Below are positions 41,680 through 64,000 of a DNA stretch of 64,000 bases, in pieces (within the stretch, counting starts at the first letter, position 1; each line of letters begins with the position of its first letter). Made by a program: the position numbers and the translations under genes. The notes beneath the pieces were generated by a model, which was not told the DNA's origin, made no database searches, and was given only the letters and a program-made list of their open reading frames with translations. Source of the stretch: Rhodanobacteraceae bacterium (GTDB lineage Bacteria; Pseudomonadota; Gammaproteobacteria; Xanthomonadales; Rhodanobacteraceae); the NCBI GenBank assembly GCA_035688305.1, contig DASSNC010000111.1, positions 573-64,572 of the forward strand, read 5' to 3'.

Positions 41680-42237
41680 ATGCAGCTCTACCTCGACCTC
41701 CTGCGCGACGTGCTCGAGAACGGCGCCCGCAAGGACGACCGCACCGGCACCGGAACGCTATCTGTGTTCGGGCGGCAAATCCGCATGGACCTTGCCGCCG
41801 GCTTCCCGCTGCTCACCACCAAGAAACTGCACCTGAAGTCCATCGTGCACGAGTTGCTGTGGTTCCTGCGCGGCGACACCAACATCGCGTACCTGAAGGA
41901 ACACGGCGTCAGCATCTGGAACGAATGGGCCGACGCCAGCGGCGACCTCGGCCCCGTGTACGGCAGGCAGTGGCGGGCCTGGCCGACGCCCGACGGACGC
42001 AGCATCGACCAGATTTCGCGGGTGGTCGAACAGATCAGGCAGCGCCCCGATTCGCGCCGCATGCTGGTCAGCGCCTGGAACGTCGGCGAGCTGGACCAGA
42101 TGGCCCTGATGCCCTGCCACGCCTTGTTCCAGTTCTACGTCGCGAATGGGAAATTGTCGTGCCAGCTGTACCAACGCTCGGCGGATATCTTTCTTGGCGT
42201 GCCGTTCTTTTCAGGCATAGCAATTCTGAAGGCCTAG
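41680..42237 (+). pseudogene. thyA: Native thymidylate synthase, truncated after about 176 codons by the island insertion
   Basis: It reads as canonical ThyA ([15 protein letters not shown]...[16 protein letters not shown]) up to 42207. Nine unrelated codons (FSGIAILKA) and a TAG stop follow. The roughly 88 C-terminal residues expected from established ThyA sequences are absent, and base composition drops at the same point. Confidence 0.85.
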
Positions 42238-42340
42238 GTACTCGTTTCCCTGTAGGCCATATCGCTATTGTCCATGATCCAGGGCGAGCGTGTTGCGCCT
42301 CAGGCCTATGTCAGTTATACCGGCCAACGAAATTGGGAGT

Positions 42341-43243: not shown

Positions 43244-43298
43244 ATCTGGTTGTGATGGAGGGGCACACTCTCGCAGCGATCGGTGCCCACGGGGTACG

Positions 43299-45920: not shown

Positions 45921-45924
45921 TTGT

Positions 45925-47979: not shown

Positions 47980-48521
47980 GGTCCCCACGGACAACCTTGC
48001 TCGACAGAGGTCGGGGTGCCAAGCCCCAAACAGTCGAACAACGGATTGAAAGACGCCTCGAAGTCCTGCGGGAATGGCTCCGTAGTGGTGTCCCGGTGGG
48101 CAGATCCATTCCTAAGAATCTGAAAGCAGTACGCATATGGGAAGAAGCCGAACTCCGTATACAACCCATCGCATCGCCGAATGAATTCACGACGACGCAT
48201 CGGTTGCACGGCCCTCTTATACGTGACATTGCCGGAATTCTCACTGAGCTGAAGAAGCGCTACAAGCAACCAGCAAGAGCCCAGCCAAAAGCATCAACAT
48301 CAGTAGAGAAATTCGATCGCAAGGCGTTCGAAAGGCAACTTGAGGCAGTGGTGTCGCAATGGCACTCAGAGCGCGATCAGCGATTGAGTCAAGAAAGGCG
48401 CGCCGATGCGGCTGAAGCCCGCAATGTATTGTTGCTTGAGGAGAGCGCAAAAAAGGATGTTCTTATCGCCGATCTTCGGCGACAAGTCGCAGTGCATAAA
48501 GGTTTGAGGGTAGTGAAGTGA
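47976..48521 (+). CDS. Small coiled-coil protein, third of the trio (Tn554 TnpC-like position)
   Basis: The ATG at 47976 forms an ATGA overlap with the previous stop, with a GGAGGGA Shine-Dalgarno sequence at 47964-47970. 181 aa. The C-terminal half is heptad-like and charged (ERQLEAVVSQWHSERDQRLSQERRADAAEARNVLLLEE). No family recognised. Confidence 0.55.
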   Translation: MRSPRTTLLDRGRGAKPQTVEQRIERRLEVLREWLRSGVPVGRSIPKNLKAVRIWEEAELRIQPIASPNEFTTTHRLHGPLIRDIAGILTELKKRYKQPARAQPKASTSVEKFDRKAFERQLEAVVSQWHSERDQRLSQERRADAAEARNVLLLEESAKKDVLIADLRRQVAVHKGLRVVK

Positions 48522-48574
48522 GGCTTGATGCCGGCAATGCATACGACATCGGCAGAATTCGGACAGACAATGCA

Positions 48575-51500
48575 TTATGGAGAGTCTGACGGCCTGATCG
48601 CGAATCGCACCTTCTCTTCATGGCTTGCATTCTTGGATCGACGTGCCGTCGCAGCAGTAAATTCTCGGACCCCAATAAGCGCCTCCAGTTGAGTCCGGCC
48701 GGTTGCGTTCAAAACGATGGCCGCCCCTTCTCCCCAGAGGCAATCGCCGTGCGTTTGGCCATCAGGCGCTCCGTCTCGCCAGCAATAGGCAGTTGCTACG
48801 ATCGCCCCGGTGGTGTCTGCCCACGTAGAGGAGCCGTCATCTGCAATTCGCCAGTTGAGGCTCGCGGTAAGGGAGGGATCGAGAGTCAGCTCGAAGTTAG
48901 GAAGCGACCCCAAACCCTCACGTTCGACGCGGCAAACAGGGATCCACGCTCTGGTTTCAGGTCCGCCGTTAAGTCCCGCGGGCGCTGAAACGGGTAGGCC
49001 ATCATACAGAAAGCGAGGATCGATACGAGCAGGAAGTCTCGTTCCGAATAAGCGCATCCGTGTCCATTCATAGGTAGTGAAAGCGTCTCTTCCGTGAAAA
49101 TGAGACACCCCCGCGAGGATTGTGTCTGGGCCGAGATCCACATCACTCAAGTCCTCTTCCACCGCCGCCAGCCAGTCTTCCTCGTCCACCCTGAATCCGG
49201 GCATCGTCGGTCGGTGGACAAATTCGGGCCTAATATCCATCTTAGTCCGCAGTGGGACTTGGGACTCGCCGAGGGCCCAAACCAATTGATCGATCTCGTC
49301 GGCACTGATTCGGCCTGCCCGTTCTAGTTCTCCGGCGATCCGTCGTAGGGCCCTTAGCGCCCCGACCACATGGGGGTATCGAAACGTCAATCGGAAGCCT
49401 AGTTTTGACATCTCCCGCTCTAATCCATCGAGACCTGGCTGCCCGAACGCCTCTAATCCACCCCAACTTTCGATCAGATCTTGGACTCTGCGCCGAATGT
49501 GACCCGTCGAAACACCAGCGGCCTCGGCAAGCCGGCTGACGAGATGATCGACGGGAGCGCTCCAAGCCGCGACATCCGATACAGCGGGCGGCCCGAAAGG
49601 TCGTCGGCGAAGAGAGTTAGCCCTAACGACCGGTTGTAGGGGCGGGAGAGCCAAACTGTAGAAAACTGGGGTCGGAGCGACTTGGCGCCCGACATCCAAT
49701 CCCCACTTCATGGTCAATGCTTTCGCAAGCGAACGCACTACGATGTCGTCGTGATCAACAAGCGCAACAACGCGGGTCTCCAGCACCCCCCGGAGTTTCG
49801 TTCTACCCCACGCGCGGGCGAGACGAAGGCCCTCAATCACCTCTTCCGCGGCACCCGAAAGCATTGATTCGATCAGTGTCGTTAGCGCATCTTCATCGAT
49901 GTCTGCCAAGGCGGAAAGGCCTCGTTCCGCGTGCCATCTGAGTTCGGGAATGGGAAGCGCTAAAAGTTGGTGAAATAGCTTCGCAGTTAAAGCTGAGTCT
50001 GTATCAACATCGATCATCTCGATGTCTTTACCAAGTCGGTAGTCGCGTGTGCAAGGCAATTGCTCCTCCACTGACTCCCACATTGCCTGCCAATTCGGGG
50101 CAGTCGTGAGCACCGGCCAGATGTCATCGATATCCCACAGAAGCGAGTTAGTCATCTCTTCTCCAGCTGCCAGCGCCGATGCGAAGTTCGCGTAAGCATC
50201 TGCGTGGACAGCGGCCCCATCCAACTTCAATCGGGCCTGGAAGTAACGTCGACGACCACCGCCCATCGTCCAGGACCAGCTTGCACTACGATCCTCAGCA
50301 ATCACATAACCGTTGACCAGGCGAGCAGCCACATCGTTGCGGCCAACGGCCAATGCTCTATCCACCAAGCTGAATCGAGCGCGGTTATCCTGGCTTATGC
50401 GGGCATGTCGATCGAACAAAGCAAGCGCTACATCAATATCGGCCGTTGGAATCAGCCTGATGAATGCCTTCGTCGCGTCATAGTCAACGGATCCGTCTGT
50501 CGCCACTTCGTCGAGCCGAGCCGTGAGGCTCGTTATGTCGGCAACATCGTCATAACGTGTTGGAGAGTCTCCGCCGCTTCTGCGCAGCGTCGGCTCGCCG
50601 GCGAGCCTTGCCATGCCCGCGCGGATGCCTCCTGAAGGCACTCCACGCTTCTCAACCTCTAGCGCCAGTGTGTCGAGAAGCGAATGCCTGACGTCCATCT
50701 GCGAATGGATCTCGATATTCATTTGCAGAATATTGGCTATAACATCGACTTCCGCAGGTGCCGCGACGCCCATGGCTTCGCGAATGAACCACCCTTCTGA
50801 CTCACTGCGGTAATACGCTGCCCTATGGAAGGGCAGGCAGAGCGAAACCCAGGTCTCGACACAAGCCCTGAGGCGCCGTGGATCTCGCTTGACCAAGCCG
50901 ATCATCAAGGCATCCACGACGTCCGGTAATTCAATCAGATCGGCGTTGTTGAGAGCCAGTGCCGTGCTGATGCCAAGCTTCGCGTTATCCAACATCGCCT
51001 CTACGATGATCTCGTGAGCGATTCGGCCAGCTGCGTCTCTACCTTCTGTTAGCGTCATGCCGACGGCTTGCCGAGCAAGCGTGCGTACACGCGCGAATCG
51101 CCCGACCGGATCGATACGATTAGCCTCGCGCAGGAGTGCTATCCAGAAGGCATACTGCGGATCCTTTTTCGCTTGAACGGCATAACCGAGTGTTTCAGCT
51201 CTGCCTTCCGCTAACAACGCTCGTGCACGATCTTTGCGTCCGATTTGCGCGAATGCAACAGCCAAGCGAGCTGTACTCGAAAGAAACTCGCTCGGAGTAT
51301 TCTCGTCCCGACGTTCCAGCAATCCGCTTAAGCGCCGCTCCGCATCATCGACATTCCCACCTAACTGTGCCATCGTGCAGGCGATCACACTCTCGAGGGG
51401 GACGAAGCGATTTCGTTCTGTCGGGCTATCGGCAAGGACTTGATCGATCTCATTTACTGCCATTGCGAACTCATTCAGTCCCAATCTAGCTGCCGACTCC

Positions 51501-54500
51501 AAAAGGGACCGCACCACCTCCGATGCCGCGGAAGTCAGCTGGCTGGTAGCGAAGAACTCGCCTGCCTCTTGGGCACGCGTTCGGCACACGTAACGCATGA
51601 ACCGCGCGCATTCTTGCGCAATTTCACCGTGAGCTATCGATGCTGCAGCATTTCGACTACGCGCAGCTAGCTGCCCTGCGAGCTCGCTGAACTGTTGCAA
51701 CGGTCTCAGCTGAGGCTTGCCCGATTGCGGAGCGGTGGCAACCGACAAGCTGAGCAAGGTCGCCAGTTCTGAGTATTCCATCACTGCTCGCGTAACGTGC
51801 TTGACCGACTCGTAGTTGATGGAATCATCAAGCTCGGAAATCGCGGGTGGCGCAAGCCCTTGGAAAAGAGATCGCGCATTAGTCAGCAGATTTCTATGGG
51901 CAATCTTAAGGGCAACCTTTCTCCTCAGCCAATCTGAGGTTTCCGAAAGCGCCCGTACATCTGTCGTGGCCTGCTCAATTAATGCTGTCGCATCTGCTGT
52001 CCTCCCGCGGGTCAATAGATGTGCAGCCGCCCAAAGGCGCAAGAACACGTGTGCACCGGGCTCCAAGCGGAAATCGGCGATTATTGTGCCTACATCAACT
52101 GCCGAATCGAATGCCAAGGCTGCCATTGCGGCACGTTTTCGTAGCAGATTCCCGAGGTCGTTCGGGTCCTGAAATGGATGATTGTCACGCCCGGCGACCT
52201 CGACGATACGGTCAATCCCGGACAAGATCTCAGTCGGCGTCCTAAAATGGATTGCCTGCTCAACCCAATTCTCAAGCTCGCTACGTTGGGAAACCGGACC
52301 TCCGGTGGACCCGTCGTCACTTCCCAGGTCGTGCAATGGTTCGATGCGCTCGAAGAGAGATCTTGCTCGATCCAAGTTTCCCTCGGCCAACCACGCAGCC
52401 ACCACGGCGTATCCGTTACCGCCTACCTCCTCAATGAATGCCTCCGCATCATCAACGTCGCCAGTTGCAATCAAGGCCTCGACCGTATCATCCGACTGCT
52501 CAATGGCCGAAAATCGACGAGTCAACTCGTCCGACGAAAAGATCAAACGGAAGGCTGCTGTTGGATCCCGCACCTCCTTCAAAGAATTGAAGGCCAGCCT
52601 GATATCGTCCTGAATGCTACCCACCGATCGGCCGGCTAGAAACTGCTCGCGAAAGAGCGCCGGAGTCGCGAGTACTAGCGCCTCTTGATGCGCTCCAGAG
52701 CGCAACAGATAGCGCAATTGCAGATACCGTTGAGGCGAATCATCGCCTGCGCTTACCGCGATTTCCGCCAATCGTCGGTATAGCTGTGTTGAGTATTCAG
52801 GATCTGGCACTCCATAACGCAATCTGGGTATGCGGGCCACAAACAGCCGAAAACTGTTGTGAAAGACCGACCAGCCACGCCCATTACTGATGAGGAGATG
52901 GCGAACGTTGCGCCAGGCGCGATCTATGGCGTCGATGGAGTAGAACTGTTCGAGCTGGCCCAGATCCAATGGAGCCTCTGATCTAGCGATGAGCCCGAGA
53001 ATGTCCATGATCTCTTGGTCATCGTCCAACCCGCGCAATGCGGATGTGTACAACGCCTCGACGTCTCCCGAGTATTCGAACCCTCCATCCAGAATACTCG
53101 CCCGTTCCACCTCGTCCTTGGCAGCGAGCAGCGCTTCGATCAGGTAGTGAGTCGCAAGCGGATGACCTTGCGCCAACTCGCGTAAGCGCGTCCTCGAGAT
53201 GGTCTCTGGAAGCCCCATAGCATCCGCCATTGCGGAAATTGCACCCTGAGACAGAGGGGCGATTTCCACATGGCGTCTTGGCAAACCCGATTGGTCTCGA
53301 ACAGAAGGTGGAATGCCGGGCAGATCTACGCGCTGGGTCCCCAGAAGGAACACAACGCCATCGGGAATCGAGGCCGGAAGTGGCAATTCCGAAAGAAATG
53401 ACCGCTCGGGGCGCTCCTCTCGAGGTACATGATCCAATCCATCGACGACAATAAGCGTTCGAGTACCAGTTTCTTGGAACCGCGTACCCGCTGCGCTAAG
53501 CAATGCTTCGAGTTCCTCCCGCCTTTCTTGAGGTGACTCCCGCCGGAACCGAAGACCGCGCAGACCGGTTCGTCGTAGCCCTACGATCAGGTCCTCTTGA
53601 AAGTCGGCTGCCTCTGCGCGGCCTATCCCTTGGGCAGCTCCAGGCACGAAAGCCAGGTACCTGACCACAACAAGCCGAGGCTCCGATTCGAATGCAATCT
53701 GCAGCAAAGTGGACTTGCCGGAACCAGGAGGCCCGACTAATGACACATATCCCGATGTGCTTCCATTCAATGCAAGCCTAAGTTGCTCCTCCGTAGCCGG
53801 ATTGCGCTGTACGGCAGCGCCAACGGGAAACTGGTGGCGATGCAGGGTCTCGACATCGAGCCAGCCCATTTCTCGCAGGAATGCTTCTCTGGTCCATCGA
53901 TCCTGCTCGGGAACGCGAGCAACAAGAGTTGGCAAGCGCTGCGCTATCCGATCTACTTGCGGCTGTGAGAGATCGGTTATGCCAAATCGAGTGGCGAAAT
54001 CTGGATCTCCGCCATGGACGAGTTCGAAATGGCGCAGAAACTCCTCGAATCCAGCATCGTCGAGGCTCGACTTCCCAAGTAGATGTTCGACAAATGAGCC
54101 CCAACGAGATACTTTCCACTCCGCCAACGTCCATGAAGGGTGTGCCCTCCAGTCTTCGACGAACTGTCGCGTCGTTCCACCATCATCAGTTAGCCGATCA
54201 TTTTCCGACGGAATATCCGATACAACGACGCGAATTCTTACCGTCTGACCCGGGCAACTTTCCCGTAGCTGCTGCCAAGCGAGAACTAATCCAGATAGCA
54301 AACCGTCGCTCCCGGTCAAGAGCGAACTGATCCGAAACGCGGAGGGGTTCCGTGCAGTCTTGAATTGGTGTCCCACCACTTCGTCGTCATACCCCAACAC
54401 GACGTCGTCGGCGATTCCGGCACATCGATCTGCGAGGCCCACCCAGCGCAGGTCTCCGCCGTCCAACCCGCGGTAGATGGCCGCGGCCGCAGCTTCGTAC

Positions 54501-54616
54501 TGGCGGGTGTATCCGCGCTGTGCCCGTCTCTCACCCTCTCCCGGAGCAGTTGTTCGGGTAGCAGAAGCTTCAGGTGAGGGTTCGGGATCTAGGGCAGGGG
54601 AAGCGGGGACACTCAT
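48575..54616 (-). CDS. Giant STAND-type NTPase with an N-terminal Cap4/DUF4297-like PD-(D/E)xK nuclease domain and long helical-repeat C-terminus (Avs/NLR-like)
   Basis: 2013 aa. N-terminal RGYTRQYE...GIADDVVLGYDDEVVGHQFK (nt 54359-54430). Walker A GPPGSGKS (nt 53711-53734), Walker B LIVVDGLDH, and a GHPLATHYL winged-helix-type motif. About 1400 aa of Leu/Ala-rich helical repeats and a distinct C-terminal ~250 aa follow. Confidence 0.8.
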   Translation of the reverse strand: MSVPASPALDPEPSPEASATRTTAPGEGERRAQRGYTRQYEAAAAAIYRGLDGGDLRWVGLADRCAGIADDVVLGYDDEVVGHQFKTARNPSAFRISSLLTGSDGLLSGLVLAWQQLRESCPGQTVRIRVVVSDIPSENDRLTDDGGTTRQFVEDWRAHPSWTLAEWKVSRWGSFVEHLLGKSSLDDAGFEEFLRHFELVHGGDPDFATRFGITDLSQPQVDRIAQRLPTLVARVPEQDRWTREAFLREMGWLDVETLHRHQFPVGAAVQRNPATEEQLRLALNGSTSGYVSLVGPPGSGKSTLLQIAFESEPRLVVVRYLAFVPGAAQGIGRAEAADFQEDLIVGLRRTGLRGLRFRRESPQERREELEALLSAAGTRFQETGTRTLIVVDGLDHVPREERPERSFLSELPLPASIPDGVVFLLGTQRVDLPGIPPSVRDQSGLPRRHVEIAPLSQGAISAMADAMGLPETISRTRLRELAQGHPLATHYLIEALLAAKDEVERASILDGGFEYSGDVEALYTSALRGLDDDQEIMDILGLIARSEAPLDLGQLEQFYSIDAIDRAWRNVRHLLISNGRGWSVFHNSFRLFVARIPRLRYGVPDPEYSTQLYRRLAEIAVSAGDDSPQRYLQLRYLLRSGAHQEALVLATPALFREQFLAGRSVGSIQDDIRLAFNSLKEVRDPTAAFRLIFSSDELTRRFSAIEQSDDTVEALIATGDVDDAEAFIEEVGGNGYAVVAAWLAEGNLDRARSLFERIEPLHDLGSDDGSTGGPVSQRSELENWVEQAIHFRTPTEILSGIDRIVEVAGRDNHPFQDPNDLGNLLRKRAAMAALAFDSAVDVGTIIADFRLEPGAHVFLRLWAAAHLLTRGRTADATALIEQATTDVRALSETSDWLRRKVALKIAHRNLLTNARSLFQGLAPPAISELDDSINYESVKHVTRAVMEYSELATLLSLSVATAPQSGKPQLRPLQQFSELAGQLAARSRNAAASIAHGEIAQECARFMRYVCRTRAQEAGEFFATSQLTSAASEVVRSLLESAARLGLNEFAMAVNEIDQVLADSPTERNRFVPLESVIACTMAQLGGNVDDAERRLSGLLERRDENTPSEFLSSTARLAVAFAQIGRKDRARALLAEGRAETLGYAVQAKKDPQYAFWIALLREANRIDPVGRFARVRTLARQAVGMTLTEGRDAAGRIAHEIIVEAMLDNAKLGISTALALNNADLIELPDVVDALMIGLVKRDPRRLRACVETWVSLCLPFHRAAYYRSESEGWFIREAMGVAAPAEVDVIANILQMNIEIHSQMDVRHSLLDTLALEVEKRGVPSGGIRAGMARLAGEPTLRRSGGDSPTRYDDVADITSLTARLDEVATDGSVDYDATKAFIRLIPTADIDVALALFDRHARISQDNRARFSLVDRALAVGRNDVAARLVNGYVIAEDRSASWSWTMGGGRRRYFQARLKLDGAAVHADAYANFASALAAGEEMTNSLLWDIDDIWPVLTTAPNWQAMWESVEEQLPCTRDYRLGKDIEMIDVDTDSALTAKLFHQLLALPIPELRWHAERGLSALADIDEDALTTLIESMLSGAAEEVIEGLRLARAWGRTKLRGVLETRVVALVDHDDIVVRSLAKALTMKWGLDVGRQVAPTPVFYSLALPPLQPVVRANSLRRRPFGPPAVSDVAAWSAPVDHLVSRLAEAAGVSTGHIRRRVQDLIESWGGLEAFGQPGLDGLEREMSKLGFRLTFRYPHVVGALRALRRIAGELERAGRISADEIDQLVWALGESQVPLRTKMDIRPEFVHRPTMPGFRVDEEDWLAAVEEDLSDVDLGPDTILAGVSHFHGRDAFTTYEWTRMRLFGTRLPARIDPRFLYDGLPVSAPAGLNGGPETRAWIPVCRVEREGLGSLPNFELTLDPSLTASLNWRIADDGSSTWADTTGAIVATAYCWRDGAPDGQTHGDCLWGEGAAIVLNATGRTQLEALIGVREFTAATARRSKNASHEEKVRFAIRPSDSP

Positions 54617-54787
54617 CGGTTCATGATAGTGAATGGCCTTCGATGCCGCTGGAATGGGCCCGGAGTCGGAAATTGGGTCGGCGGCAACAAGGCAACGCCA
54701 CCGCAGATCGGCTTGGACGTGCAGAAGGCCAAGCGCAAAGAATTTTGGAGCAAGTCCGGCAACCGACCCATCGACTCTACGGCTAAC

Positions 54788-56305
54788 TTACGTCTCGGAA
54801 TTCGAAACTGCCGCCGCGTCGGTATCTTGGGGCCATTCAAGGCAGCTCCGGATGTTAAATCCGCCCGTTGAGCCGTACTTCGTCACATCGGCGGGAAGAT
54901 GATCCGTCAGATATCGGTGAACACGGCGAACAATGGCTGCATCAAAGCTCAGGATGCCCAGGGGGATCGGGAATCCGCGGCCATCGTTAATTGGCGCGTG
55001 AACAACCACGGCGGCAACTCTGCGCGGAATCAGGAGGACTTCGAGCGAGCTTGGAATCGCCCCAGTATTTGGCCTGCAGAAGATTGTGGGAGCGGCTTTA
55101 GTCAGCCGCCGCTGAGGTTTTCCTTCATCAATCAAGATGGGGCTGCGCTCCATCTTTCTGCCAGTGGCGTCTACATCAACGCCTTCCTTCGTGAGCGTTT
55201 CGAGAAGCTCCAGGAAGGATCGCGAAGCACCCCATGCTGACTGCTTCGGCACGACCCACAAGAAAACGTCATCATTGCTAAGCGCAGGTTCGTTTGCGTA
55301 GCCGATAGCCGTTGTAATTCGTACGATGTTCTCGGGTTGATACAGCGCTCCAGCGATGCCAACGGTGGGCCTATTGCTGCGCAACTCACCGGCGCGACCG
55401 GCCAATTCCTTGAAGTAACGAAGCGATGCAAAACCAGAGCGATTCACATACTCCTTTAGGTACTCGGGCGCGATATTCGTCAGGACGTCGAGCGCATTGA
55501 CATCCTCCGGCGTCTTTACGGTTCGAAGATTCTCCAGAAACTCCGCCACACCATGGACGACTCGGTCTCGATCGGCAAGTTCGTGCCCTGTTCTCCACTT
55601 CTCCAGAAGCGCTTCAGGTTCGCTAGGCCTCCGAACTGAGGCCATGGCAACAAACGGGACGACTGCTGAGAATCGGTCGCCGGCGACTACGTCATCCACT
55701 GAGTACAAGGACCTCTTTAGTTGATCCACCGCCTCCCTGTCCCTGCGACTTGAAATCTCTCCATAGAATCTGCGAAAGGACTCAGGAACGTGCCTCGAAG
55801 CGTTGGCGACCAGGTCCGGATCTCGAATCGCAAGCTCAGGTAGCGATCTTTCAAATTCGGATTGGTGCTCCCGATCGCAGGGCGCAAGAGAGAGTAAATC
55901 GAATCCAACTCTTTCTGTTTTTTTAGCGACGTCGTAGATCTGAGGCTTGTCGCTCGCCTTAAAGAGGGCGTTGCCGGCATCCGTCAGCCAAATGCGTCCT
56001 TCGGAGCGAGATATATAGGCTCGGGCTTCGGCATCACGTATGACGTACGCCATTTCATTGGCGTTGAAGCCAAAGAAGCTTGCAGCAGTTTCCTCTGGCA
56101 TGCCGTCGGCAGAATGCAATAGTCGCAGCAAGAACTCGGTTGTTAGCGAAACCTCGCCAACTTCGGCCACTTTGTGCCGCACCACGAACTGTCTGGCCGG
56201 AAGTTGCACGTCGAAAATTCCGACGGGAACCCGAACGTCGATCGATTCAGGTTCGGCTCCAATTGCTGCCTTGCGCAATGAAAGCACGCGACGAGCCCCG
56301 CTCAT
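54788..56305 (-). CDS. Hypothetical 505-aa protein, translationally coupled to the NERD-kinase-helicase gene
   Basis: The ATG at 56305 overlaps the upstream gene's TGA (ATGA at 56302-56305). The long ORF has composition matching its neighbours. I see no nucleotide-binding, HxK (PLD) or other catalytic motif. Confidence 0.7.
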   Translation of the reverse strand: MSGARRVLSLRKAAIGAEPESIDVRVPVGIFDVQLPARQFVVRHKVAEVGEVSLTTEFLLRLLHSADGMPEETAASFFGFNANEMAYVIRDAEARAYISRSEGRIWLTDAGNALFKASDKPQIYDVAKKTERVGFDLLSLAPCDREHQSEFERSLPELAIRDPDLVANASRHVPESFRRFYGEISSRRDREAVDQLKRSLYSVDDVVAGDRFSAVVPFVAMASVRRPSEPEALLEKWRTGHELADRDRVVHGVAEFLENLRTVKTPEDVNALDVLTNIAPEYLKEYVNRSGFASLRYFKELAGRAGELRSNRPTVGIAGALYQPENIVRITTAIGYANEPALSNDDVFLWVVPKQSAWGASRSFLELLETLTKEGVDVDATGRKMERSPILIDEGKPQRRLTKAAPTIFCRPNTGAIPSSLEVLLIPRRVAAVVVHAPINDGRGFPIPLGILSFDAAIVRRVHRYLTDHLPADVTKYGSTGGFNIRSCLEWPQDTDAAAVSNSET

Positions 56306-59300
56306 ACGTCACCTTCCTTCCGCTTGACCCTGCCAGTGACCTTCTCTTTTCCCTTCCTCGACGATTTTGGTGAAGCCAGAAGCTCGGAGGCGTCCAGGCG
56401 CATGGCGTCACCGCCTTTGACCTCTTCGTCGAAGCCGGCCGAAACAGCACCAAGCGGAGACCCTTCTCTCCATGCTGCCTTTGCGCCCACGATGACAAGA
56501 CGATCCATCGCTCGACTCAGGGCGACATTGATTCGATTCTTCTTCGCCAGGAAGCCGGGCTGTATTGTAGGCGCCCCGCGGTCCTTGATCCCATCTGCGT
56601 TGTTTCGAACCAGCGACAGAATCACAATGAGGTTTTCTTTGCCTTGGTAGCTGTCGATAGTGTCAACCTTGATCGCGCGCCTGAATACCTCTGGAAGGCT
56701 CTCGGATTGGAGTTTCCGTCTCACGAGTTCAAGCTGCGCCGCATACGCGCAGATCACGCCGATCGCCTCCACGCCATCCGGCAGAGTCTTAATCCAGCTC
56801 AAGAATGGCTCGTGTTCGGACCAGCGCTTAAGCAGCCAGACGATCACATCCGCTTCGGCGGCATTGTGTAAACTCCCACGCCTTATACTTCCGGCCCTTT
56901 GGTAAGCGCTCGCACCCATGGCGTCCGTACTCACCCACACGAGTGGAACCGCCAGTTCAGGCGGCAGGGCCCCCGGAGGAATTTCTGGCTTGGTCCGTTC
57001 GTGTTGCAGAGCTCGGTCGTAGAACGAGTTGGAGACCAACCTGCCGATCGGCGGAAGCATCCGATACTGCTTCTTTAACGTATGCCCCCCATGTTTGCCG
57101 TATGTGGATTCGAACGCGCGCTCGAAATCGCTCTTAACCACTTCGGCTGCCGAAATCTTCAACTCAAGCGCGAGAGCATCCACGACATCTGGAGAATGCT
57201 GGGGTTCGAGTTGCGCGTGGTCGCCTACTAGCACGACCCATTTCCCCGCTTGTATTGGAACCGCCAGCTCGCTCGGAGTGCAGCGCGCCGCCTCATCCAC
57301 GATCACGAGATCAAAGGTTGTCTTCGTCAGCCCCAAGGAAGAACGGCCAAGGCCTACGCATGTACCCGAGACTACTTGCCGGGTGCCGGCTAGAAAAGTC
57401 TCGTAGCTCCTCTGCCATGTAGAGACAGTTCCGACGATGTCCCGCCCGAGCTCTGCGATGTTTCGCAGCCGCTCAACCCTATGAGCAGTTTCATTCGAAA
57501 GCCTTGAGAAGAAGAGGGAGGTGACCATGTTCTCGACCTCGCTCGATTCAACTTCTGACAGGTCGCAATCAATACCACGATCTAGAAGGCGCTGCTGCAC
57601 AGTTGCCTTCAATGAGTTGACTCGGACTGTTTCGCTGTTTGCCTCGACCAACTCGGAAACGCGGGCCAGTATCGGCCGGATTGTGTCCTCGAAGAACATC
57701 ACGGTCTCGCATTCGGTTTCACTCAGTCCAAGATATCTCGCAACGACACCCATCCTTAATTCGCGGGTCGCGACGAAGTCATCCTTATAAGCTCGTTCAA
57801 CGGCAGCGGCGTGGTATGGCCTCAACGACTCGGAAATCTGGCCCTCAGCGCCAACCCGAATCATGCTTAGCGAGTCGCGGTCCTTTCCGAACAAGTTCAA
57901 TACGGCCTCGGCCGCGTTGTTGACAGCTTCATGCGATTGACTGGCAACTAGCACGTTCCTCGCGAGCCCATGAGTCAGCGCGTAGTGCACCAGTGCGCCA
58001 ATGAAGCGCGTCTTTCCTGTCCCTGGGGGGCCCTGCAACAAGCCCAACGGCCGATGCGCGACGATTCCTTTGAATGCGGCCACCTGCGTCGGATTGAGCT
58101 TATAGCGCTGCACCAGCAGGTCTTCTTCCACCTCAATGGTGATGTTGTAGGGCCGCTTGCCTGTGGCAGGGTAAAAAGCGTCGAGCAACTCAGGAGCAAC
58201 GGAGTTTTTGGTGAGAATTCGAGTTGTTGCCTCCTCGCGGCGCTGCCAGCTCGTGTTCTCCATACGACTTTGGAACCGGAGGCGGTCGCCATCTCGAACG
58301 ATGGGGCCTCGAGAGCCGTCGACGTAACCGTGAATGGCCAAAGCGTCTGCAGATGTCTTCTGAACGTCGAGGGCCCCGATCTTGCGCCAGATGCCGTTAT
58401 TGTCGAGTCGCTCAACTGCGACCACGTCCTTTCGGTCGAAATCCAGGTTGCCGACCGACAGCTGAATCGGTAATACGTGAAGACGCGCTTGCGAGCGATA
58501 TGTACTGTCGCCTAAGGCAAGAACCTCCGTCTTGAGCTCGCCCTCGATCCGAATCGAACGCTCCCACAACAGTGGCACATCCAAACTACCCCTTGCTCCA
58601 CCTTCGCCGGCTGCTTGCTCTCGCTCTACAAGCTCGTCCTCCTTTGCTTCGATGCTGGCGACTTGAGACAGTTCCTGCTCGCTCTCTTCCTTTATCTGAG
58701 GTGGTGGCGCGCCCAGTGCAGCCGCAACCTCAGGGAGTTGGAGGATCGACGAAATAGCCCCCAATTGACTCAATCCGCTTTCAATCACGAGATTCGCGCG
58801 GAATCCGCAGATCTTCTGCTTCGCGAGCCAAGATGCCTGCGCTTGTTCAAGCTTGTTGCGCCACGCCTTCGAGGGCGCTCCGGTAGCGCCCAATTCGACC
58901 GAAAGCTCCTCGACTGCGCCAACGATTTTGAGTCGCCTGTCGCTTTTCACAATCCAAAACTGCCCTTCGTCAGGAAGCATCGGGCCAGATTCAGTGCGAG
59001 GAATGGAGATGGTGAAACTCGGCAGATCACTTTCAGTAGGCGGTTTCGCAGCGACTTCGAGAGCCTCGCGTAGCGGTAACAATGTACCGTTCGCTGGAGG
59101 TCCCATGCGACATTCTTCGATGGCCCTTTCGATTCGTCGAGCGACTTCCGCATTGATGTCTAGCCTCGCCAGAAGTTCCTCTGCGATTTTTGTCACTGCG
59201 TAGCGATCGCGCTCGAATCGCCCACCCGAAGCGGGTGAATAGGCTCGAGATCGACGAGATCCGTCTTGGGCGGATGAGTAGTCGACCATGTCAATGAGAA

Positions 59301-61227
59301 CCGGCAGGGGCTTGCCTGCACTTCCATCGACAATGATGTTGTCAGGTTTTAGGTCTCCATGAGCCACCGCTCGCCCATGCAGATTTTCAATCACATCGAT
59401 GAGCTCGACGATAAACTCTATCGCTGCAAGCGCCTCTCCTAGTGGGCCGGTTCCCATGCTCTCCGCAAGCGTTCTGCCGGGAACATACTCCTGAACCAGA
59501 ACAATCGCATCGCCAGTCCAATGCACATTAAGCAGTCGAGCAGTCCCCTTAGCCGGAGCCTCTGCTAACTGCTGAGCATGGTCTAAAAACGCAAGGATTC
59601 GGGAGCGCTCCTTAGCAATGTTCCCGAGCGTGAGCGACTGCCACATCTTTACGAGGCGCAGTTGTCCTTCGGAATCGGCTCTCCAGACAATCGCCCGCTC
59701 ATCGTCGCTTATGAGCTCGGTCTCGAGATAAGCCTTGAAGATATCTCTCTGTGTCTTCAATGTTCGGTAGCGCTCGAGCCCTTCGATTGTCGACTTTTCA
59801 TCGCTGCCTGAAACAAGAGCGGCGTTGAACGCTGCAAGCATTTCGCCCGCGTCGCTGAATCGATTGGACTGGTCCACGTCCAGACACTTCTCGAACCACG
59901 GATGCAGATTAGAAAACTCTCCGTCTGCGTCGATCGTACTGTTCCATTCTGGCGGCTCGCCGCGGGGAGGCTCCCCAAATAGCAGACGGTGAATCACGCA
60001 TCCCAGCAAAAATACATCCCTGCGAAGTAGATCAACAGGTCCACCCAAGATGTCCTCAGGCATGCTGGAAGTAGAAAGAAACTGAAACCGAGACTCGCCT
60101 AGCGTCTGGACTTCAGGTAAAGATGCAGACATCAAATGTGAGAGTTTTACCGTACTTGGTAGCTCCACCCATACGCTGTGAGCACCCAAATCCAAGTGAG
60201 CGGCGTTCAATGCGTGAATCGGTGCTACCGACGACAGAACCTGTCGTGCTAAGGCGATGCGTTCTCCTGCGGTGGCACCAGCGAGGTCCGACTGAGCGAA
60301 CTCGCTCAAGCGCTTCATCCGTCGTCGGCGCTCGAAAACCTCCCAGTAAGAGACACCACGCTCCGGATCTTCCGCCTTTGGCTTGAAAATCGACTCACCG
60401 CACTTCGGGTTCCGATCATCCAACCAAGCGATAACCTTCCTTTCACGACCTGCTATTTCCGCGCGCCCGGCTTCGGTCTGAAACCGTGTGTCAGCCTTTG
60501 CAAAGTTCCAGCGGCGCAGGAGTCCGCAGGAATTGTCAATTCCAGACTCCTCCACGTCAAACTCGGCATAGAGCTCTTCACGGTGCTGGAATGTGGGCGC
60601 GTCTACACGCGCTATGAAGCCACCATAATTGCGTTTGCCAACTTGGAATATTCCACCACCCACATTGAAAAAGCGCCTGAAGCGCTGCATCCAGACATCG
60701 CTCGTGAAGTCTTCGAAGAAGACAGGACCAAAGGCTTTGATTCTTTTATCCTTGTTTCGGACAACCTTGATGAAGTCATCGATGTAGAAGACGAACGCTG
60801 ACTCGCTATCGGCAATCTGAGACCGATCTTTGGTATTGGTCAGCACTACCGCTGACTGGATCATCGGGGTGGGCAGAGGATCAGTTAATCCCTCCTTCTT
60901 AGCCTGCTCTGATAATGATTTTTTAAGAATGGGATGAAGTTCGCGCGCGATCTCTGCGATTTTCCCTACGGGGGATCGACCATTGTTGCGGTTTCCATTG
61001 AACCAGTTGCCATCGCGACTACTGATCGGCCCCTTCCAGTCCTTCAAGTCGACCAGCAAAAAGCGATCTTCCAACACAAGAACTACGTCGATTTCTCGAG
61101 TACCTTTTCCAGGCAAAGACAGATCAAGGTTCGTAAACGCGTGCCAACTATCTGGGAGAGCCTTAAGTTTGTCTAATCCTGGAACCTCACGAACATGAAT
61201 TCCACGGCCATTGTTGAATATTTTCAT
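56302..61227 (-). CDS. Fusion protein with NERD nuclease-like domain, pseudokinase-like segment, Ser/Thr-kinase-like domain and Upf1/DNA2-like SF1 helicase
   Basis: 1641 aa. NERD motif EIDVVLVLEDRFLLVDLKDWKG (aa ~45-66). Degenerate kinase loop HLDLGAHS (nt 60175-60198) followed by DVFLLGCVIHRLLFGEPP. Second kinase with LRLVKMW (beta3 Lys), VQEYVPGRTLAE (hinge), HGDLKPDN (nt 59338-59361) and LIDMVDY. Helicase motifs GPPGTGKT (nt 58009-58032), VIVDEAARC, GDHAQLEP, KKQYRM, TIDSYQGKE and VALSRA. Confidence 0.85.
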   Translation of the reverse strand: MKIFNNGRGIHVREVPGLDKLKALPDSWHAFTNLDLSLPGKGTREIDVVLVLEDRFLLVDLKDWKGPISSRDGNWFNGNRNNGRSPVGKIAEIARELHPILKKSLSEQAKKEGLTDPLPTPMIQSAVVLTNTKDRSQIADSESAFVFYIDDFIKVVRNKDKRIKAFGPVFFEDFTSDVWMQRFRRFFNVGGGIFQVGKRNYGGFIARVDAPTFQHREELYAEFDVEESGIDNSCGLLRRWNFAKADTRFQTEAGRAEIAGRERKVIAWLDDRNPKCGESIFKPKAEDPERGVSYWEVFERRRRMKRLSEFAQSDLAGATAGERIALARQVLSSVAPIHALNAAHLDLGAHSVWVELPSTVKLSHLMSASLPEVQTLGESRFQFLSTSSMPEDILGGPVDLLRRDVFLLGCVIHRLLFGEPPRGEPPEWNSTIDADGEFSNLHPWFEKCLDVDQSNRFSDAGEMLAAFNAALVSGSDEKSTIEGLERYRTLKTQRDIFKAYLETELISDDERAIVWRADSEGQLRLVKMWQSLTLGNIAKERSRILAFLDHAQQLAEAPAKGTARLLNVHWTGDAIVLVQEYVPGRTLAESMGTGPLGEALAAIEFIVELIDVIENLHGRAVAHGDLKPDNIIVDGSAGKPLPVLIDMVDYSSAQDGSRRSRAYSPASGGRFERDRYAVTKIAEELLARLDINAEVARRIERAIEECRMGPPANGTLLPLREALEVAAKPPTESDLPSFTISIPRTESGPMLPDEGQFWIVKSDRRLKIVGAVEELSVELGATGAPSKAWRNKLEQAQASWLAKQKICGFRANLVIESGLSQLGAISSILQLPEVAAALGAPPPQIKEESEQELSQVASIEAKEDELVEREQAAGEGGARGSLDVPLLWERSIRIEGELKTEVLALGDSTYRSQARLHVLPIQLSVGNLDFDRKDVVAVERLDNNGIWRKIGALDVQKTSADALAIHGYVDGSRGPIVRDGDRLRFQSRMENTSWQRREEATTRILTKNSVAPELLDAFYPATGKRPYNITIEVEEDLLVQRYKLNPTQVAAFKGIVAHRPLGLLQGPPGTGKTRFIGALVHYALTHGLARNVLVASQSHEAVNNAAEAVLNLFGKDRDSLSMIRVGAEGQISESLRPYHAAAVERAYKDDFVATRELRMGVVARYLGLSETECETVMFFEDTIRPILARVSELVEANSETVRVNSLKATVQQRLLDRGIDCDLSEVESSEVENMVTSLFFSRLSNETAHRVERLRNIAELGRDIVGTVSTWQRSYETFLAGTRQVVSGTCVGLGRSSLGLTKTTFDLVIVDEAARCTPSELAVPIQAGKWVVLVGDHAQLEPQHSPDVVDALALELKISAAEVVKSDFERAFESTYGKHGGHTLKKQYRMLPPIGRLVSNSFYDRALQHERTKPEIPPGALPPELAVPLVWVSTDAMGASAYQRAGSIRRGSLHNAAEADVIVWLLKRWSEHEPFLSWIKTLPDGVEAIGVICAYAAQLELVRRKLQSESLPEVFRRAIKVDTIDSYQGKENLIVILSLVRNNADGIKDRGAPTIQPGFLAKKNRINVALSRAMDRLVIVGAKAAWREGSPLGAVSAGFDEEVKGGDAMRLDASELLASPKSSRKGKEKVTGRVKRKEGDV

Positions 61228-61422
61228 TCAGCGCGCCTGCTCTTGAGTCCACACATGCTCCGCCATCCAAGCACCAATCCGCCAAGGTTCCGGAGCCACT
61301 CAGAACCCGTGTTGCGCATAACGACGCTTGATCTTCACGGGTTGCTTTGTCGGTAATCTGACCGAATTAACTTGATTCGAGCTACCAATCTCCTTGATGC
61401 ACGCGCCTTGGATGCGTCGATC

Positions 61423-64000
61423 TCAGACCGAAGTATCGGTGGAACGCACCACGCTCCCTTCGCGCAATGATTCGTAAAGCCGGGCAGGGCCCAACAATAC
61501 CTCACGGATACCAGTACGCACGCGTTCGGAATCCAGGGCCTGGGTGCTCATCGAGGTATGCGCGGCCAAGGCATCCATGATCGCATTCATCAGCTCTCTG
61601 CCGAGGTCGGGCGAGTTGGCGAACTGCTCCTTGGTATTGCTGGCCGCCTGCTGAATCAGGGTTTCCGATTCCAGCAGTTTGCCCTTGATGACATTGTTCA
61701 CGTAGCTCAGCTTATCGTTTTCGGTAAGGTCGCCCTGGAACAGGTCGTTGACCTGCTCGATGATCTGCGCGAGCTGCTCCTTCGCCGGGTCGCGAATCTC
61801 ATGCGTCCCGGTTTCGTCCATCGGCTTCAGCTTCGGGTACCGCTGGTCCATCAGTGACATCGCGGCCTTGCCAAGATTGCGCAGCCGGTGATGGGTCAGC
61901 ACGATTTGCGACAGGTCGATGGTTTCGCGCTCGCGGCCGAATTCCAGCAGCGGCAACAGGCGCTTGAAGAAGATCGCCCGCTTCTCCACCGCCGTATTGC
62001 CGTAATCGAAGATCTGCGACAGGAATGCGTACACACGCAGATAGATGCCGAGGTTCTTCTTGAACAGTTGCAGCGCGTTCATCTCGTCCTGCGCGGCTTG
62101 CTCGGCCTTGGCATCCCGGCCCTCCTGCGCAGCACGCCATGACTGCTGTGCAGCCCGGTACTGCCTCAGCAAGCGTTCCGCGACCGGTTCGATCGTCGCC
62201 GCCAGTTCACGTTGAGCGCCTTGCGGATCCAGTTCCGCCCGCACCACGCGCTCGACTTCGTTGTCGTCGTAGTGCCCGGATGCGTTTAGTTGTGCAAGCA
62301 GGTCGTAGACCAGATTCGGATCGGTGACACGCTCCAGCTCTGCGGTTTCGTAGTAGGTCTTGAACGCCTGCAGAATTTCCCCGGCATCGTTGACGAAATC
62401 CAGTACGTAGGTGGTGTCCTTCTTGCCGAACGGGCCGCGATACGCCCGATTGAGACGTGACAATGTCTGCACAGCTTGGATGCCGGCAAGGCGCTTGTCC
62501 ACGTACATGCCGCACAGCAAAGGCTGGTCGAAGCCGGTCTGGAACTTGTTGGCGACCAGCAGGATTTGATACTCGTCGGTCGCGAACGCCTCGCGCATGT
62601 CCTGGCGGCGCAGGGTCGGATTCAGCGACGTGCTGTTTTCCGTGAACGCGTCCGGACCGGATTCGGGGTCGTGCACTTCGCCCGAGAACGCCACCAGCGT
62701 GCCGATCGGATAGCCGCGATCCTTGATGTACTTGTCGATGGCAAGCTGCCAGCGCACCGCCTCCACGCGGCTGGCCACCACCACCATCGCCTTGGCGTGG
62801 CCGTCGAGCAACGGCGCGACGTTCTCGCGGAAGTGCTCGACCACCACCTGCACCTTCTGCGCGATGTTGTACGGGTGCAGCCGCACCCAGCGCATGATGC
62901 CCTTCAGGGCCGAGTTGACCTCGACTTCCTTCTCGTCCCATTCCTTGCCCTGGTTGGCCAGCTTGAACGCGAGTTTGTACGGTGTGTAGTTTTCCAGCAC
63001 GTCGAGGATGAATTCCTCCTCGATCGCTTGGCGCATGGAATAGATGTGGAACGGCGCGGGCTTGTTGTCGTCGCCCGCCGGCCGGTCCGGAGCGGGTCGC
63101 GTGCCGAACAGCTCCATCGTCTTGGCCTTCGGTGTCGCGGTGAAGGCCACGTAGGTCACGCCCGCGGTGTTCGCCCGTGCGGCCATCTGCACGGCCAGCA
63201 TGTCCTCGGTGTCGATCTCGCCGCCGTCTTCTATCTCCGCAAGTTCCTGCACGGAGAGCACCTGCCGCAACTTGCTGGCTGCCTCGCCGGTCTGCGAACT
63301 GTGCGCCTCGTCGGCGATCACCGCAAAGCGCTTGCCCTGCGTCGCGGCCAGTTCCTGTACGGTCTTCAGCGCGAACGGAAAAGTCTGGATCGTGCACACG
63401 ACGATCTTCTTGCCGCCGGCCAGCGCTTTCGCCAGCTCCGCACTCTTGGCCGCGCTTTCGCCGGTGACGACCTCGACCACGCCGGTGGTGCGCTCGAAGT
63501 CGAACACCGCATCACGCAACTGCGCGTCCAGCACGTTGCGGTCGCTCACCACCAGCACGGTGTCGAACACCTTGCGGTTGTCGGCATCGTGCAGGTCGGC
63601 GAGGAAGTGCGCCGTCCACGCGATCGAATTGGTCTTGCCGGAACCGGCCGAATGCTGTATCAGGTATTTCCCGCCGGCGCCCTTCGCGTACACATCCACC
63701 ACCAGTTTGCGTGTCGCGTCCAACTGGTGATAGCGCGGAAAGATCAGCGCCTTGATACGTTTTTTCTCGTCGCGCGGCGTGACCAGGTAGCGACCGATGA
63801 TTTCGAGCCAACTGTCACGCTGCCAAACCTGTTCCCACAGGTACGCGGTGCGGTAGCCGTCAGGATTCACCGGGTTGCCCTTGCCGCCATGGTCGCCGCG
63901 GTTGAACGGCAGGAACGCCGTCGCCGCACCAGCCAGCCGCGTGGTCATTTCCACTTCGCTGCTGCTGACCGCGAAGTGCACCAGCGCGCCGCCGGGGAAC
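61423..64000 (-). CDS. hsdR: Type I restriction enzyme R subunit (HsdR); the N-terminus lies outside the window
   Basis: The reading frame is open to the window edge. Motifs: LIQHSAGSGKTNSIAW (motif I), VIADEAHSSQTG (DEAH), FTATPK and QTLSRLNR (motif VI). High, host-like GC. Confidence 0.9.
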   Translation of the reverse strand, partial: FPGGALVHFAVSSSEVEMTTRLAGAATAFLPFNRGDHGGKGNPVNPDGYRTAYLWEQVWQRDSWLEIIGRYLVTPRDEKKRIKALIFPRYHQLDATRKLVVDVYAKGAGGKYLIQHSAGSGKTNSIAWTAHFLADLHDADNRKVFDTVLVVSDRNVLDAQLRDAVFDFERTTGVVEVVTGESAAKSAELAKALAGGKKIVVCTIQTFPFALKTVQELAATQGKRFAVIADEAHSSQTGEAASKLRQVLSVQELAEIEDGGEIDTEDMLAVQMAARANTAGVTYVAFTATPKAKTMELFGTRPAPDRPAGDDNKPAPFHIYSMRQAIEEEFILDVLENYTPYKLAFKLANQGKEWDEKEVEVNSALKGIMRWVRLHPYNIAQKVQVVVEHFRENVAPLLDGHAKAMVVVASRVEAVRWQLAIDKYIKDRGYPIGTLVAFSGEVHDPESGPDAFTENSTSLNPTLRRQDMREAFATDEYQILLVANKFQTGFDQPLLCGMYVDKRLAGIQAVQTLSRLNRAYRGPFGKKDTTYVLDFVNDAGEILQAFKTYYETAELERVTDPNLVYDLLAQLNASGHYDDNEVERVVRAELDPQGAQRELAATIEPVAERLLRQYRAAQQSWRAAQEGRDAKAEQAAQDEMNALQLFKKNLGIYLRVYAFLSQIFDYGNTAVEKRAIFFKRLLPLLEFGRERETIDLSQIVLTHHRLRNLGKAAMSLMDQRYPKLKPMDETGTHEIRDPAKEQLAQIIEQVNDLFQGDLTENDKLSYVNNVIKGKLLESETLIQQAASNTKEQFANSPDLGRELMNAIMDALAAHTSMSTQALDSERVRTGIREVLLGPARLYESLREGSVVRSTDTSV

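Follow-up and report, generated by a model that had tools for sequence, protein, structure and literature searches.

Why would a bacterium join a nuclease-related domain, two kinase-like segments and an Upf1-like helicase on a single polypeptide? Does such a protein point to a new kind of defence system, or to one that is already on record? These questions are raised by an open reading frame (ORF) in a stretch of 64,000 nucleotides from a Rhodanobacteraceae bacterium (GenBank assembly GCA_035688305.1, contig DASSNC010000111.1, positions 573 to 64,572 of the forward strand), referred to here as the window. An earlier note, made from the letters of this DNA alone, had read in this ORF a kinase-like tandem flanked by a NERD domain and a superfamily 1 (SF1) helicase, had proposed an anti-phage setting, and had named no characterised bacterial protein known to share the same order of domains. 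The fold tandem, its flanks and the defence setting all stand; the uncharacterised domain order does not. By homology, we assign the ORF as mkoA of type I Mokosh, an anti-phage system of two genes, and its translation as coupled to that of mkoB.

A full-length member of the MkoA family

The ORF has exactly the limits given before, 56302-61227, and lies on the minus strand, on which the earlier note was silent. It starts with ATG and runs uninterrupted for 1641 amino acids (aa), as seen in the ORF list and its translation, and three independent Logan assemblies contain a gene call for the identical 1641-aa protein, as do JGI data. All nine sequence motifs quoted in the earlier note are found where it had placed them. 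Five parts follow each other along the chain: NERD, a first kinase-like domain (K1), a second (K2), a middle region and an Upf1-like SF1B helicase (coordinates in Table 1).

Type I Mokosh is defined as a gene that combines a helicase with a serine/threonine kinase (STK), together with a gene for a phospholipase D (PLD) protein (Millman et al. 2022). The PADLOC model for MkoA, PDLC03921, aligns to the window protein with 1592.6 bits, placing aa 1-1616 on profile positions 1-1603 of 1607, so that the curated family model is covered over its full length. As the definition requires, the COG1112-type Upf1-like SF1 helicase is present (Pfam and PDB searches) and the same gene carries a Ser/Thr kinase domain (Pfam Pkinase, aa 564-660). 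The adjacent second gene is a member of the MkoB family (PADLOC PDLC03923, 353.9 bits). The proposed anti-phage setting is thus supported by PADLOC matches to both MkoA and MkoB, and by a low-GC defence island around them.

How widespread is this protein? A profile search recovered at least 247 MkoA clusters at 90% identity; nearly all full-length members measure 1620-1690 aa, carry NERD, Pkinase and AAA_11/12, and come from Alpha-, Beta- and Gammaproteobacteria. The closest named homologue, from Stenotrophomonas, is 73% identical. An exhaustive HMMER scan with aa 1-725 returned 194 representative clusters (50% identity) at E<=1e-30. Among the best 150 there were 92 matches of at least 1400 aa, and 90 of these 92 have all five parts, the remaining two being without one part each. 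We also considered a helicase-less NERD-kinase form of about 1000 aa and rejected it: most such sequences end at or before the helicase start and come from short contigs. Separately, a 1014-aa homologue on a complete-size 4.55-Mb contig of Halopseudomonas pelagia (P0009) comprises NERD, K1, K2 and the middle region and stops before the helicase, being a split gene or else a pseudogene.

Comparison with verified Mokosh systems

Two E. coli systems listed as verified allow a direct comparison. System SG199 of E. coli SEC470 consists of a 'Kinase-Helicase' MkoA of 1652 aa and an MkoB of 478 aa labelled only 'HTH', and this pair alone protects E. coli (Millman et al. 2022). For the comparison we used a gene pair of SEC470 type recovered from an E. 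coli genome (locus L005). Its MkoA is 30% identical to that of the window (E=1e-165), collinear over all five regions, of the same Pfam order and of nearly the same length (1652 versus 1641 aa). Domain hidden Markov models (HMMs) built from the window family detect their counterparts in order: NERD (1.7e-17), K1 (2.1e-38), K2 (6.9e-22), the middle region (independent E-value 2.1e-16) and the helicase (5e-147). The operon likewise has two genes with the same ATGA-type overlap, and the two MkoB proteins are homologous and similar in size (E=5e-15, 21% identity). K1 is degenerate in the SEC470-type protein too, reading AHRDVADHS and SNF; it keeps HRD where the window K1 has HLD, and its K2 has a His at the position of the catalytic-loop Lys of the window K2. 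The SEC470-type MkoB has no Pfam PLD match and is, like the window MkoB, without the HKD-motif Lys, reading H-I-S...G-F-I-T. Judged by these sequence features, the window mkoA belongs to a long subtype typified by the SEC470 system. The hosts differ, as do the islands in which the two systems lie. Phage protection by the window pair is predicted by analogy with its 30%-identical verified counterpart.

The second system, SG202 of E. coli ETEC H10407, is verified as well and comprises a 'Kinase-Helicase' of 1215 aa and an 'HTH-PLD' protein of 602 aa (Millman et al. 2022). Its helicase is Upf1-like (E=5.9e-42 to the window-family helicase HMM). Its MkoA has no NERD and only one kinase-like N-terminal domain, and this domain escapes the HMMs of both K1 and K2; what the short and long forms of MkoA have in common is thus the helicase only. 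The H10407 MkoB has an HTH and a bona fide PLD domain (SHAK...D), whereas the window MkoB is without that Lys. As a side observation, the single 'STK' of H10407 MkoA (locus L009, 7010-10657) appears degenerate by eye, with LLHRHLDENAIL for HRDLKxxN and TGF for DFG; this domain may be a pseudokinase as well.

The claim of novelty fails on three counts: the end-to-end match to the PADLOC MkoA family, the collinear verified MkoA of SEC470 with the same five-part architecture, and a record of the NERD-kinase module in PglW. Homologues of this architecture are already assigned to a characterised system, which had been named beforehand as the finding that would count against novelty. A 2023 review had already tabulated NERD in type I Mokosh (PMC10952713). 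The system, the architecture and the NERD-pseudokinase-kinase cassette were all previously on record, and the discovery value is small.

Two successive kinase folds

Does the ORF really contain two kinases in a row? The searches of profiles against PDB kinases, the register between K1 and K2, and AlphaFold2 combined with Foldseek all agree that it does. K2 is the simpler case. It passes the Pfam Pkinase model (47.3 bits against a cutoff of 31.7, aa 564-660), and its best PDB match is Stk1 (E=5.8e-8). Its motifs are LVKMW at aa 525, QEYVPGRTL at aa 579, HGDLKPDN at aa 623 and LIDMVDY at aa 644; the catalytic loop reads H623-G-D625-L-K627-P-D-N630 and the metal-binding Asp is D646. Conservation was read here and below from a full-length alignment of 40 sequences reaching down to 43% identity. 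In this alignment K527, H623, G624, D625, K627, N630 and D646 are invariant in 40/40 homologues, in agreement with the earlier reading that K2 retains the beta3 Lys, the catalytic loop and a metal-binding Asp. With all catalytic residues kept, K2 is likely the live kinase.

Searched alone, the K1 sequence stays below the Pfam threshold (E=0.0037) and matches Stk1 in the PDB only weakly (E=0.002). A family profile of 13 K1 sequences matched 377 PDB sequences at E<=0.01, and all 60 of the matches shown were protein kinases, led by Stk1 (1.1e-8) and B-Raf (3e-8). Of the 13 isolated K1 segments, 12 matched Pkinase. The K1 and K2 profiles align in register with each other (hhalign E=2e-4), and in the E. 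coli homologue the K1 and K2 HMMs each cross-detect the catalytic-loop region of the other domain.

Structure prediction followed by a structural search, a check that the earlier note had proposed, likewise returned two kinase folds. The AlphaFold2 model of aa 195-725, calculated from the 40-sequence alignment, has a mean predicted local distance difference test (pLDDT) of 85.4 and shows two successive bilobal kinase-type domains, each with N-lobe strands, alphaC, alphaE and alphaF. The C-lobe is full in K1 and short in K2, and the K2 activation segment is poorly modelled. Foldseek returned at least 2000 PDB matches to this model at E<=1e-3, and 50/50 of those listed are kinase structures. The top match is full-length JAK (7t6f_A), with 607 aligned columns against about 300 for single-domain kinases. 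In JAK a pseudokinase (JH2) precedes a kinase (JH1) on one chain, in the same order as K1 and K2. The likeness is an analogy only: identity over the pair is 14% and the root-mean-square deviation (rmsd) 22 A, which means that K1 and K2 are not placed relative to each other as in JAK; moreover, JAK carries FERM-SH2 as its flank, whereas the window MkoA is flanked by nuclease and helicase. The underlying observation is correct and lies well above chance.

K1 is a conserved, degenerate kinase-fold domain

What has become of the active site of K1? Its motifs are HLDLGAHS at aa 344, DVFLLGCVIHRLLFGEPP at aa 404 and RFSDAGEML at aa 456. In an alignment with Stk1 of S. aureus, HLDLGAHS falls on HRDIKPQN, S-H-L on D-F-G and DVFLLGCVIHRLLFGEPP on the alphaF region. 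Thus H344-L-D346-L-G348-A-H350-S351 stands for HRDxKxxN, and the catalytic-loop Lys is replaced by G348, the Asn by S351 and the DFG Asp by S363, which confirms the losses described from the letters alone. The place of the beta3 Lys is taken by R238, as judged from the AlphaFold2 strand and a W+2 register with K2. The substituted sites R238, G348, S351 and S363-H364 are invariant in 40/40 homologues. So are the residues that K1 has retained, namely H344, D346, E262 (the alphaC Glu), E391 (the APE Glu), D404 and R456, and H350 is invariant as well. K1 is a fixed domain, not a decaying one. As a kinase fold without the beta3 Lys, the Mg-binding Asn and the DFG Asp, it fits the usual definition of a pseudokinase, a kinase fold in which at least one of the VAIK Lys, HRD Asp or DFG Asp is missing, and is predicted to be one. 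Our literature search on type I Mokosh and on a pseudokinase in MkoA found no paper stating a pseudokinase-kinase tandem in this protein; the tandem is a small gain in annotation, not a new kind of system. Nor did we find reports for MkoA of the fixation of the degenerate K1 sites, of a K1 better conserved than K2, of the structural match to JAK or of a wHTH plus degenerate PLD-like make-up of its partner MkoB.

Could K1 nevertheless be an atypical active enzyme or a ligand sensor, in which a cluster of His, Asp and Ser residues binds a nucleotide or phage molecule or catalyses metal-independent phosphotransfer, so that both kinases are functional? K1 is better conserved than K2, with a mean identity to the window protein of 58% versus 49%, and an invariant set that includes R238, G348, H350, S351, S363 and H364, alongside D346, E262, E391 and R456, is what such a function might look like. 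The three losses listed above are the standard hallmarks of a pseudokinase, however, and the equivalent domain of PglW is reported to have no ATP site (PMC4365076). Nor is the His cluster universal, because H364 is an Asn in the verified E. coli homologue (SNF for SHL). We consider an active or sensing K1 unlikely.

Another proposal takes its cue from plants. Plant tandem kinase proteins such as WTK1/Yr15, Rpg1 and Sr62 are immune proteins in which a kinase is fused to a pseudokinase, with no nuclease or helicase. By their example, K1 would be an integrated decoy that baits a phage effector, and binding of the effector would release K2 and lead to abortive infection. The tandem arrangement is confirmed, the setting is an immune one, and pseudokinases fused to active kinases also occur in the defence proteins PglW and DndF. 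An arms-race surface is expected to vary, yet K1 is among the most conserved parts of MkoA and the variable part is the middle region (39% mean identity). No homology to the plant proteins beyond the general kinase fold is expected, no dedicated comparison having been made. We rate the decoy as quite improbable; given the high conservation of K1, a fixed regulatory or scaffold role fits better than a fast-evolving decoy.

NERD, middle region and helicase

The domains that flank the tandem are those named before: Pfam finds NERD on one side and AAA_11 and AAA_12 on the other, and the PDB matches are to Upf1. NERD scores above the Pfam gathering threshold (39.9 versus 22.1 bits, aa 20-129) and has a mean identity of 53%. 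E45, D47, D60 and K62 are invariant in 40/40 homologues, and from this pattern the NERD of the window MkoA is judged to have an intact PD-(D/E)xK-type catalytic core.

The middle region (aa ~726-1040) gave no domain-specific match in Pfam, NCBIfam or PADLOC. It is the least conserved part of the protein and still finds its counterpart in SEC470-type MkoA, as noted above.

In the helicase half, AAA_11 covers aa 1043-1342 (E=3e-34) and AAA_12 aa 1365-1583 (E=3e-37). Yeast Upf1/NAM7 is the best PDB match (E=1.9e-25), followed by human UPF1, Sen1, DNA2, IGHMBP2 and ZNFX1. Walker A (GPPGTGKT) occupies aa 1066-1073, and DEAARC begins at aa 1311 (DEAAR, 1311-1315). The Walker A Lys K1072, together with D1311, E1312, Q1387, R1389 and R1572, is invariant in 40/40 homologues, and the mean identity of the helicase is 60%. 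The SF1B helicase has its full set of motifs.

MkoB, the partner gene

Over 99% of its length, the window MkoB has the same sequence as a hypothetical protein from a metagenome-assembled genome of Rhodanobacteraceae, in keeping with the GC content of 62-69% found across most of the window. What kind of protein is it? Pfam gave no match, PLD included, for any of 79 MkoB homologues (0/79), and a search of the MkoB family profile against PDB sequences found nothing. The AlphaFold2 model (pLDDT 83.7) has many Foldseek matches to winged helix-turn-helix (wHTH) domains of MarR type, at an rmsd of 1.3-2.3 A over about 65 columns. Its C-terminal part matches, over about 180 columns each, TrmB (6.7e-4), phospholipase D 7e0m (8.9e-4), NucT (4.6e-3) and Nuc 1byr (2.9e-2), with vaccinia F13 and FAM83 BJ-TSA-9 also among the matches of this length. 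We take these six structures to belong to the PLD-like clan. Poxvirus F13-like proteins were also among the structure matches in the viral library BFVD. The PLD-like call for MkoB is a structural one, since sequence and profile searches gave no link to PLD.

The near-invariant motif H436-A-P...G450-I-L-S453-F-D455 lies on a strand-loop-strand-helix element of the model. It keeps the His-to-Gly spacing of the HKD motif HxK(x)4D(x)6GSxN, with Pro in place of Lys, and neither HxK nor HxR occurs anywhere in the window MkoB sequence. With moderate confidence we describe MkoB as a wHTH joined to a probably non-canonical, possibly inactive PLD-like domain. A link at the sequence level between the window MkoB and the PLD-type MkoB of H10407 was considered and rejected; PADLOC gave only a weak N-terminal match (E=0.0074).

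The NERD-kinase cassette in PglW, DndF and MAD6

Is the N-terminal half of MkoA unique to Mokosh? It aligns collinearly with the NCBIfam profile of PglW, all scores being far below the family cutoff: aa 14-152 (NERD) fall on profile positions 14-153, aa 297-435 (K1) on 288-441, and aa 538-653 (K2) on 546-660. PglW is described as NERD followed by an atypical kinase-like domain that has no ATP site and then by a Hanks kinase (Hoskisson et al. 2015, PMC4365076), and the mutation K677A in its second kinase abolishes both autophosphorylation and defence (PMC4365076). A tripartite arrangement of NERD, inactive kinase and active kinase has been reported for PglW and some DndF proteins (2026 NAR paper, PMC12839542).

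This collinearity over some 700 N-terminal residues raises the question whether the window protein is itself a diverged PglW of BREX type 2 (Pgl), or else forms one unit with its neighbours, a type I R subunit or a 2013-aa STAND protein; the hsdR-like, mkoA, mkoB and STAND genes do lie in tandem, all on the minus strand. Membership of PglW was rejected. At 83.4 bits, the window protein falls far short of the cutoff of 990, and its C-terminal half is an Upf1-like helicase, whereas that of PglW consists of wHTH repeats and an inactive STAND domain (PMC12839542). PglW of Streptomyces coelicolor works with PglX, PglY and PglZ; no PglX, PglZ, BrxC or other BREX component was found among the neighbours scanned. 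A link of mkoAB to the STAND neighbour was rejected by synteny. At the MkoA loci of E. coli, Pseudomonas asiatica and Bradyrhizobium there are no STAND or hsdR neighbours; a Pfam-less gene of 478-490 aa lies directly downstream of the MkoA homologue in each, its homology to the window MkoB having been tested for E. coli only, with the Pseudomonas and Bradyrhizobium genes matched by size. The Pseudomonas asiatica locus lies beside an integrase. The autonomy of the SEC470 pair (Millman 2022) argues against a joint unit in the same way. A diverged PglW or a joint unit is thus already largely refuted, and we hold it to be very improbable.

MAD6 of MADS (NCBIfam NF047741), in which NERD is followed by a kinase, is the best NCBIfam match for aa 22-482. 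Membership was rejected here too, with 117.6 bits against an equivalog cutoff of 460 and no helicase part in the model. In the MAD6 model, which has 612 positions, K1 (281-469) and K2 (183-336) map to one and the same kinase region.

A proposed mechanism for the long subtype

How might these parts work together? Mutations of the helicase ATP site and of the PLD site abolish defence in the Mokosh systems tested (Millman et al. 2022). In the long subtype, an event on the helicase side would be relayed to the N-terminal module of NERD, K1 and K2. K2 would then autophosphorylate or phosphorylate targets, by analogy with the second kinase of PglW, and K1 may act as a non-catalytic regulator or scaffold of K2, in the pseudokinase-then-kinase order known from JAK. 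Nuclease activity would come from NERD rather than from MkoB: since MkoB is without the HKD Lys, the intact NERD may be the nuclease of the long subtype. MkoB, combining a wHTH with a PLD-like fold, would probably serve as a nucleic-acid-binding partner. Taken as a whole, the identity as long-subtype mkoA together with this mechanism is an explanation that we consider likely.

Several observations weigh against it. The window MkoA shares only 30% identity with its experimentally verified homologue, and the text of Millman et al. 2022 does not say in which of the Mokosh systems the helicase and PLD sites were mutated. In the searchable literature we found no mechanism of type I Mokosh, nor a role for its kinase or NERD. 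The beta3 and alphaC elements of K1 were assigned from AlphaFold2 secondary structure, the alignments of its sequence to kinases being confined to the hinge and the C-lobe. Because the HxD Asp is retained in K1, along with an invariant group of His and Ser residues (H344, D346, H350, S351 and H364 in all), K1 may bind nucleotide or have an unusual activity. As for MkoB, its PLD-like assignment stands on marginal Foldseek E-values, from 7e-4 to 3e-2, and hhalign of its profile with the PLD-type MkoB of H10407 gave nothing (E=0.69). At least 90% of 40 MkoB homologues have the HKD-motif His, so residual catalysis is possible, and with it the alternative that MkoB is a real nuclease acting through this His.

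A bolder version of the proposed mechanism would hold that in the long subtype the PLD effector has been retired and the nuclease moved to NERD, gated by a JAK-like pseudokinase-kinase switch that reads helicase sensing, and that the NERD-pseudokinase-kinase cassette is portable across Mokosh, PglW and DndFGH. We offer this tentatively, as a conjecture that may well prove wrong. For work on the mechanism of type I Mokosh, a clean domain map helps in the design of mutants. The present map marks K2 as the likely live kinase (K527, D625, D646) and K1 as a fixed pseudokinase, as well as a NERD that appears catalytically intact and an MkoB of the long subtype without the HKD Lys. It also ties Mokosh to BREX type 2 and DndFGH through their common cassette.

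Genomic setting

Table 1. Features of the window, in window coordinates; aa numbering refers to the encoded protein.
Feature	Position	Strand	Extent	Basis or remark
mkoA, whole ORF	56302..61227	minus	1641 aa	assigned as type I Mokosh MkoA, long form
NERD (PD-(D/E)xK-type nuclease-related)	60841..61170	minus	aa 20-129	Pfam; PglW/MAD6 profiles ~14-160
K1 (predicted pseudokinase)	59773..60645	minus	aa ~195-485	family profile, AlphaFold2, Foldseek
K2 (compact Hanks-type kinase, full catalytic set)	59053..59745	minus	aa ~495-725	Pfam Pkinase
Middle region, no assigned family	58108..59052	minus	aa ~726-1040, ~315 aa	
Upf1-like SF1B helicase core	56458..58107	minus	aa ~1041-1590	Pfam AAA_11 + AAA_12
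mkoB	54788..56305	minus	505 aa	PADLOC PDLC03923, 353.9 bits; start overlaps mkoA stop (ATGA)
MkoB wHTH	55961..56146	minus	aa ~54-115, approximate	AlphaFold2 + Foldseek
MkoB C-terminal PLD-like fold, degenerate HKD	54836..55408	minus	aa ~300-490, boundaries approximate	Foldseek
STAND-type NTPase	48575-54616	minus	2013 aa	directly downstream of mkoB; AAA_16/AAA_22/NACHT-like at aa ~280-460
Three consecutive ORFs	43011-45920, 45853-47979, 47946-48521	plus	969, 708, 191 aa as listed	
hsdR-like ORF	61423-63981	minus	852 aa	TIGR00348 positions 215-670 of 674; bounded by stop near window end
Hybrid CheA-type kinase	13700-19858	plus	2052 aa	three Hpt stretches, HATPase_c, CheW, receiver domain

The GC content is 0.53-0.57 over positions ~42000-62000, against 0.62-0.69 in the flanks. 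The drop sets in immediately past thyA (42290-43243), and GC begins to rise again near the hsdR-like gene at the right edge, a pattern that suggests horizontal acquisition of this island of ~42-62 kb. There are no tRNA genes in the window that might serve as island borders, and no integrase domain was found in any window ORF scanned. A scan for promoters and terminators around the operon gave counts no higher than in shuffled sequence.

Three other groups of genes share the island or its edge. The STAND protein is weakly Avs1b-like (PADLOC E=7e-16; NCBIfam 48 bits, with a cutoff of 1500), and its gene is probably a separate Avs-like defence gene. The hsdR-like ORF appears to be without the N-terminal ~200 positions of the TIGR00348 model, and neither hsdM nor hsdS was seen in the window. 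The three consecutive plus-strand ORFs had no match in Pfam, PADLOC or NCBIfam; gene calls on the Logan contig give 181 aa for the third and, for the second, at least 684 aa up to the locus end, where it is cut. They form a candidate uncharacterised defence or mobile-element module.

To the left of the island the genes are of housekeeping type, with a ChpA-like hybrid kinase, RND efflux pumps, a POT transporter and an aminotransferase. The 2052-aa hybrid CheA-type kinase among them resembles what we take to be ChpA-like chemosensory kinases and is part of an ordinary chromosomal context.

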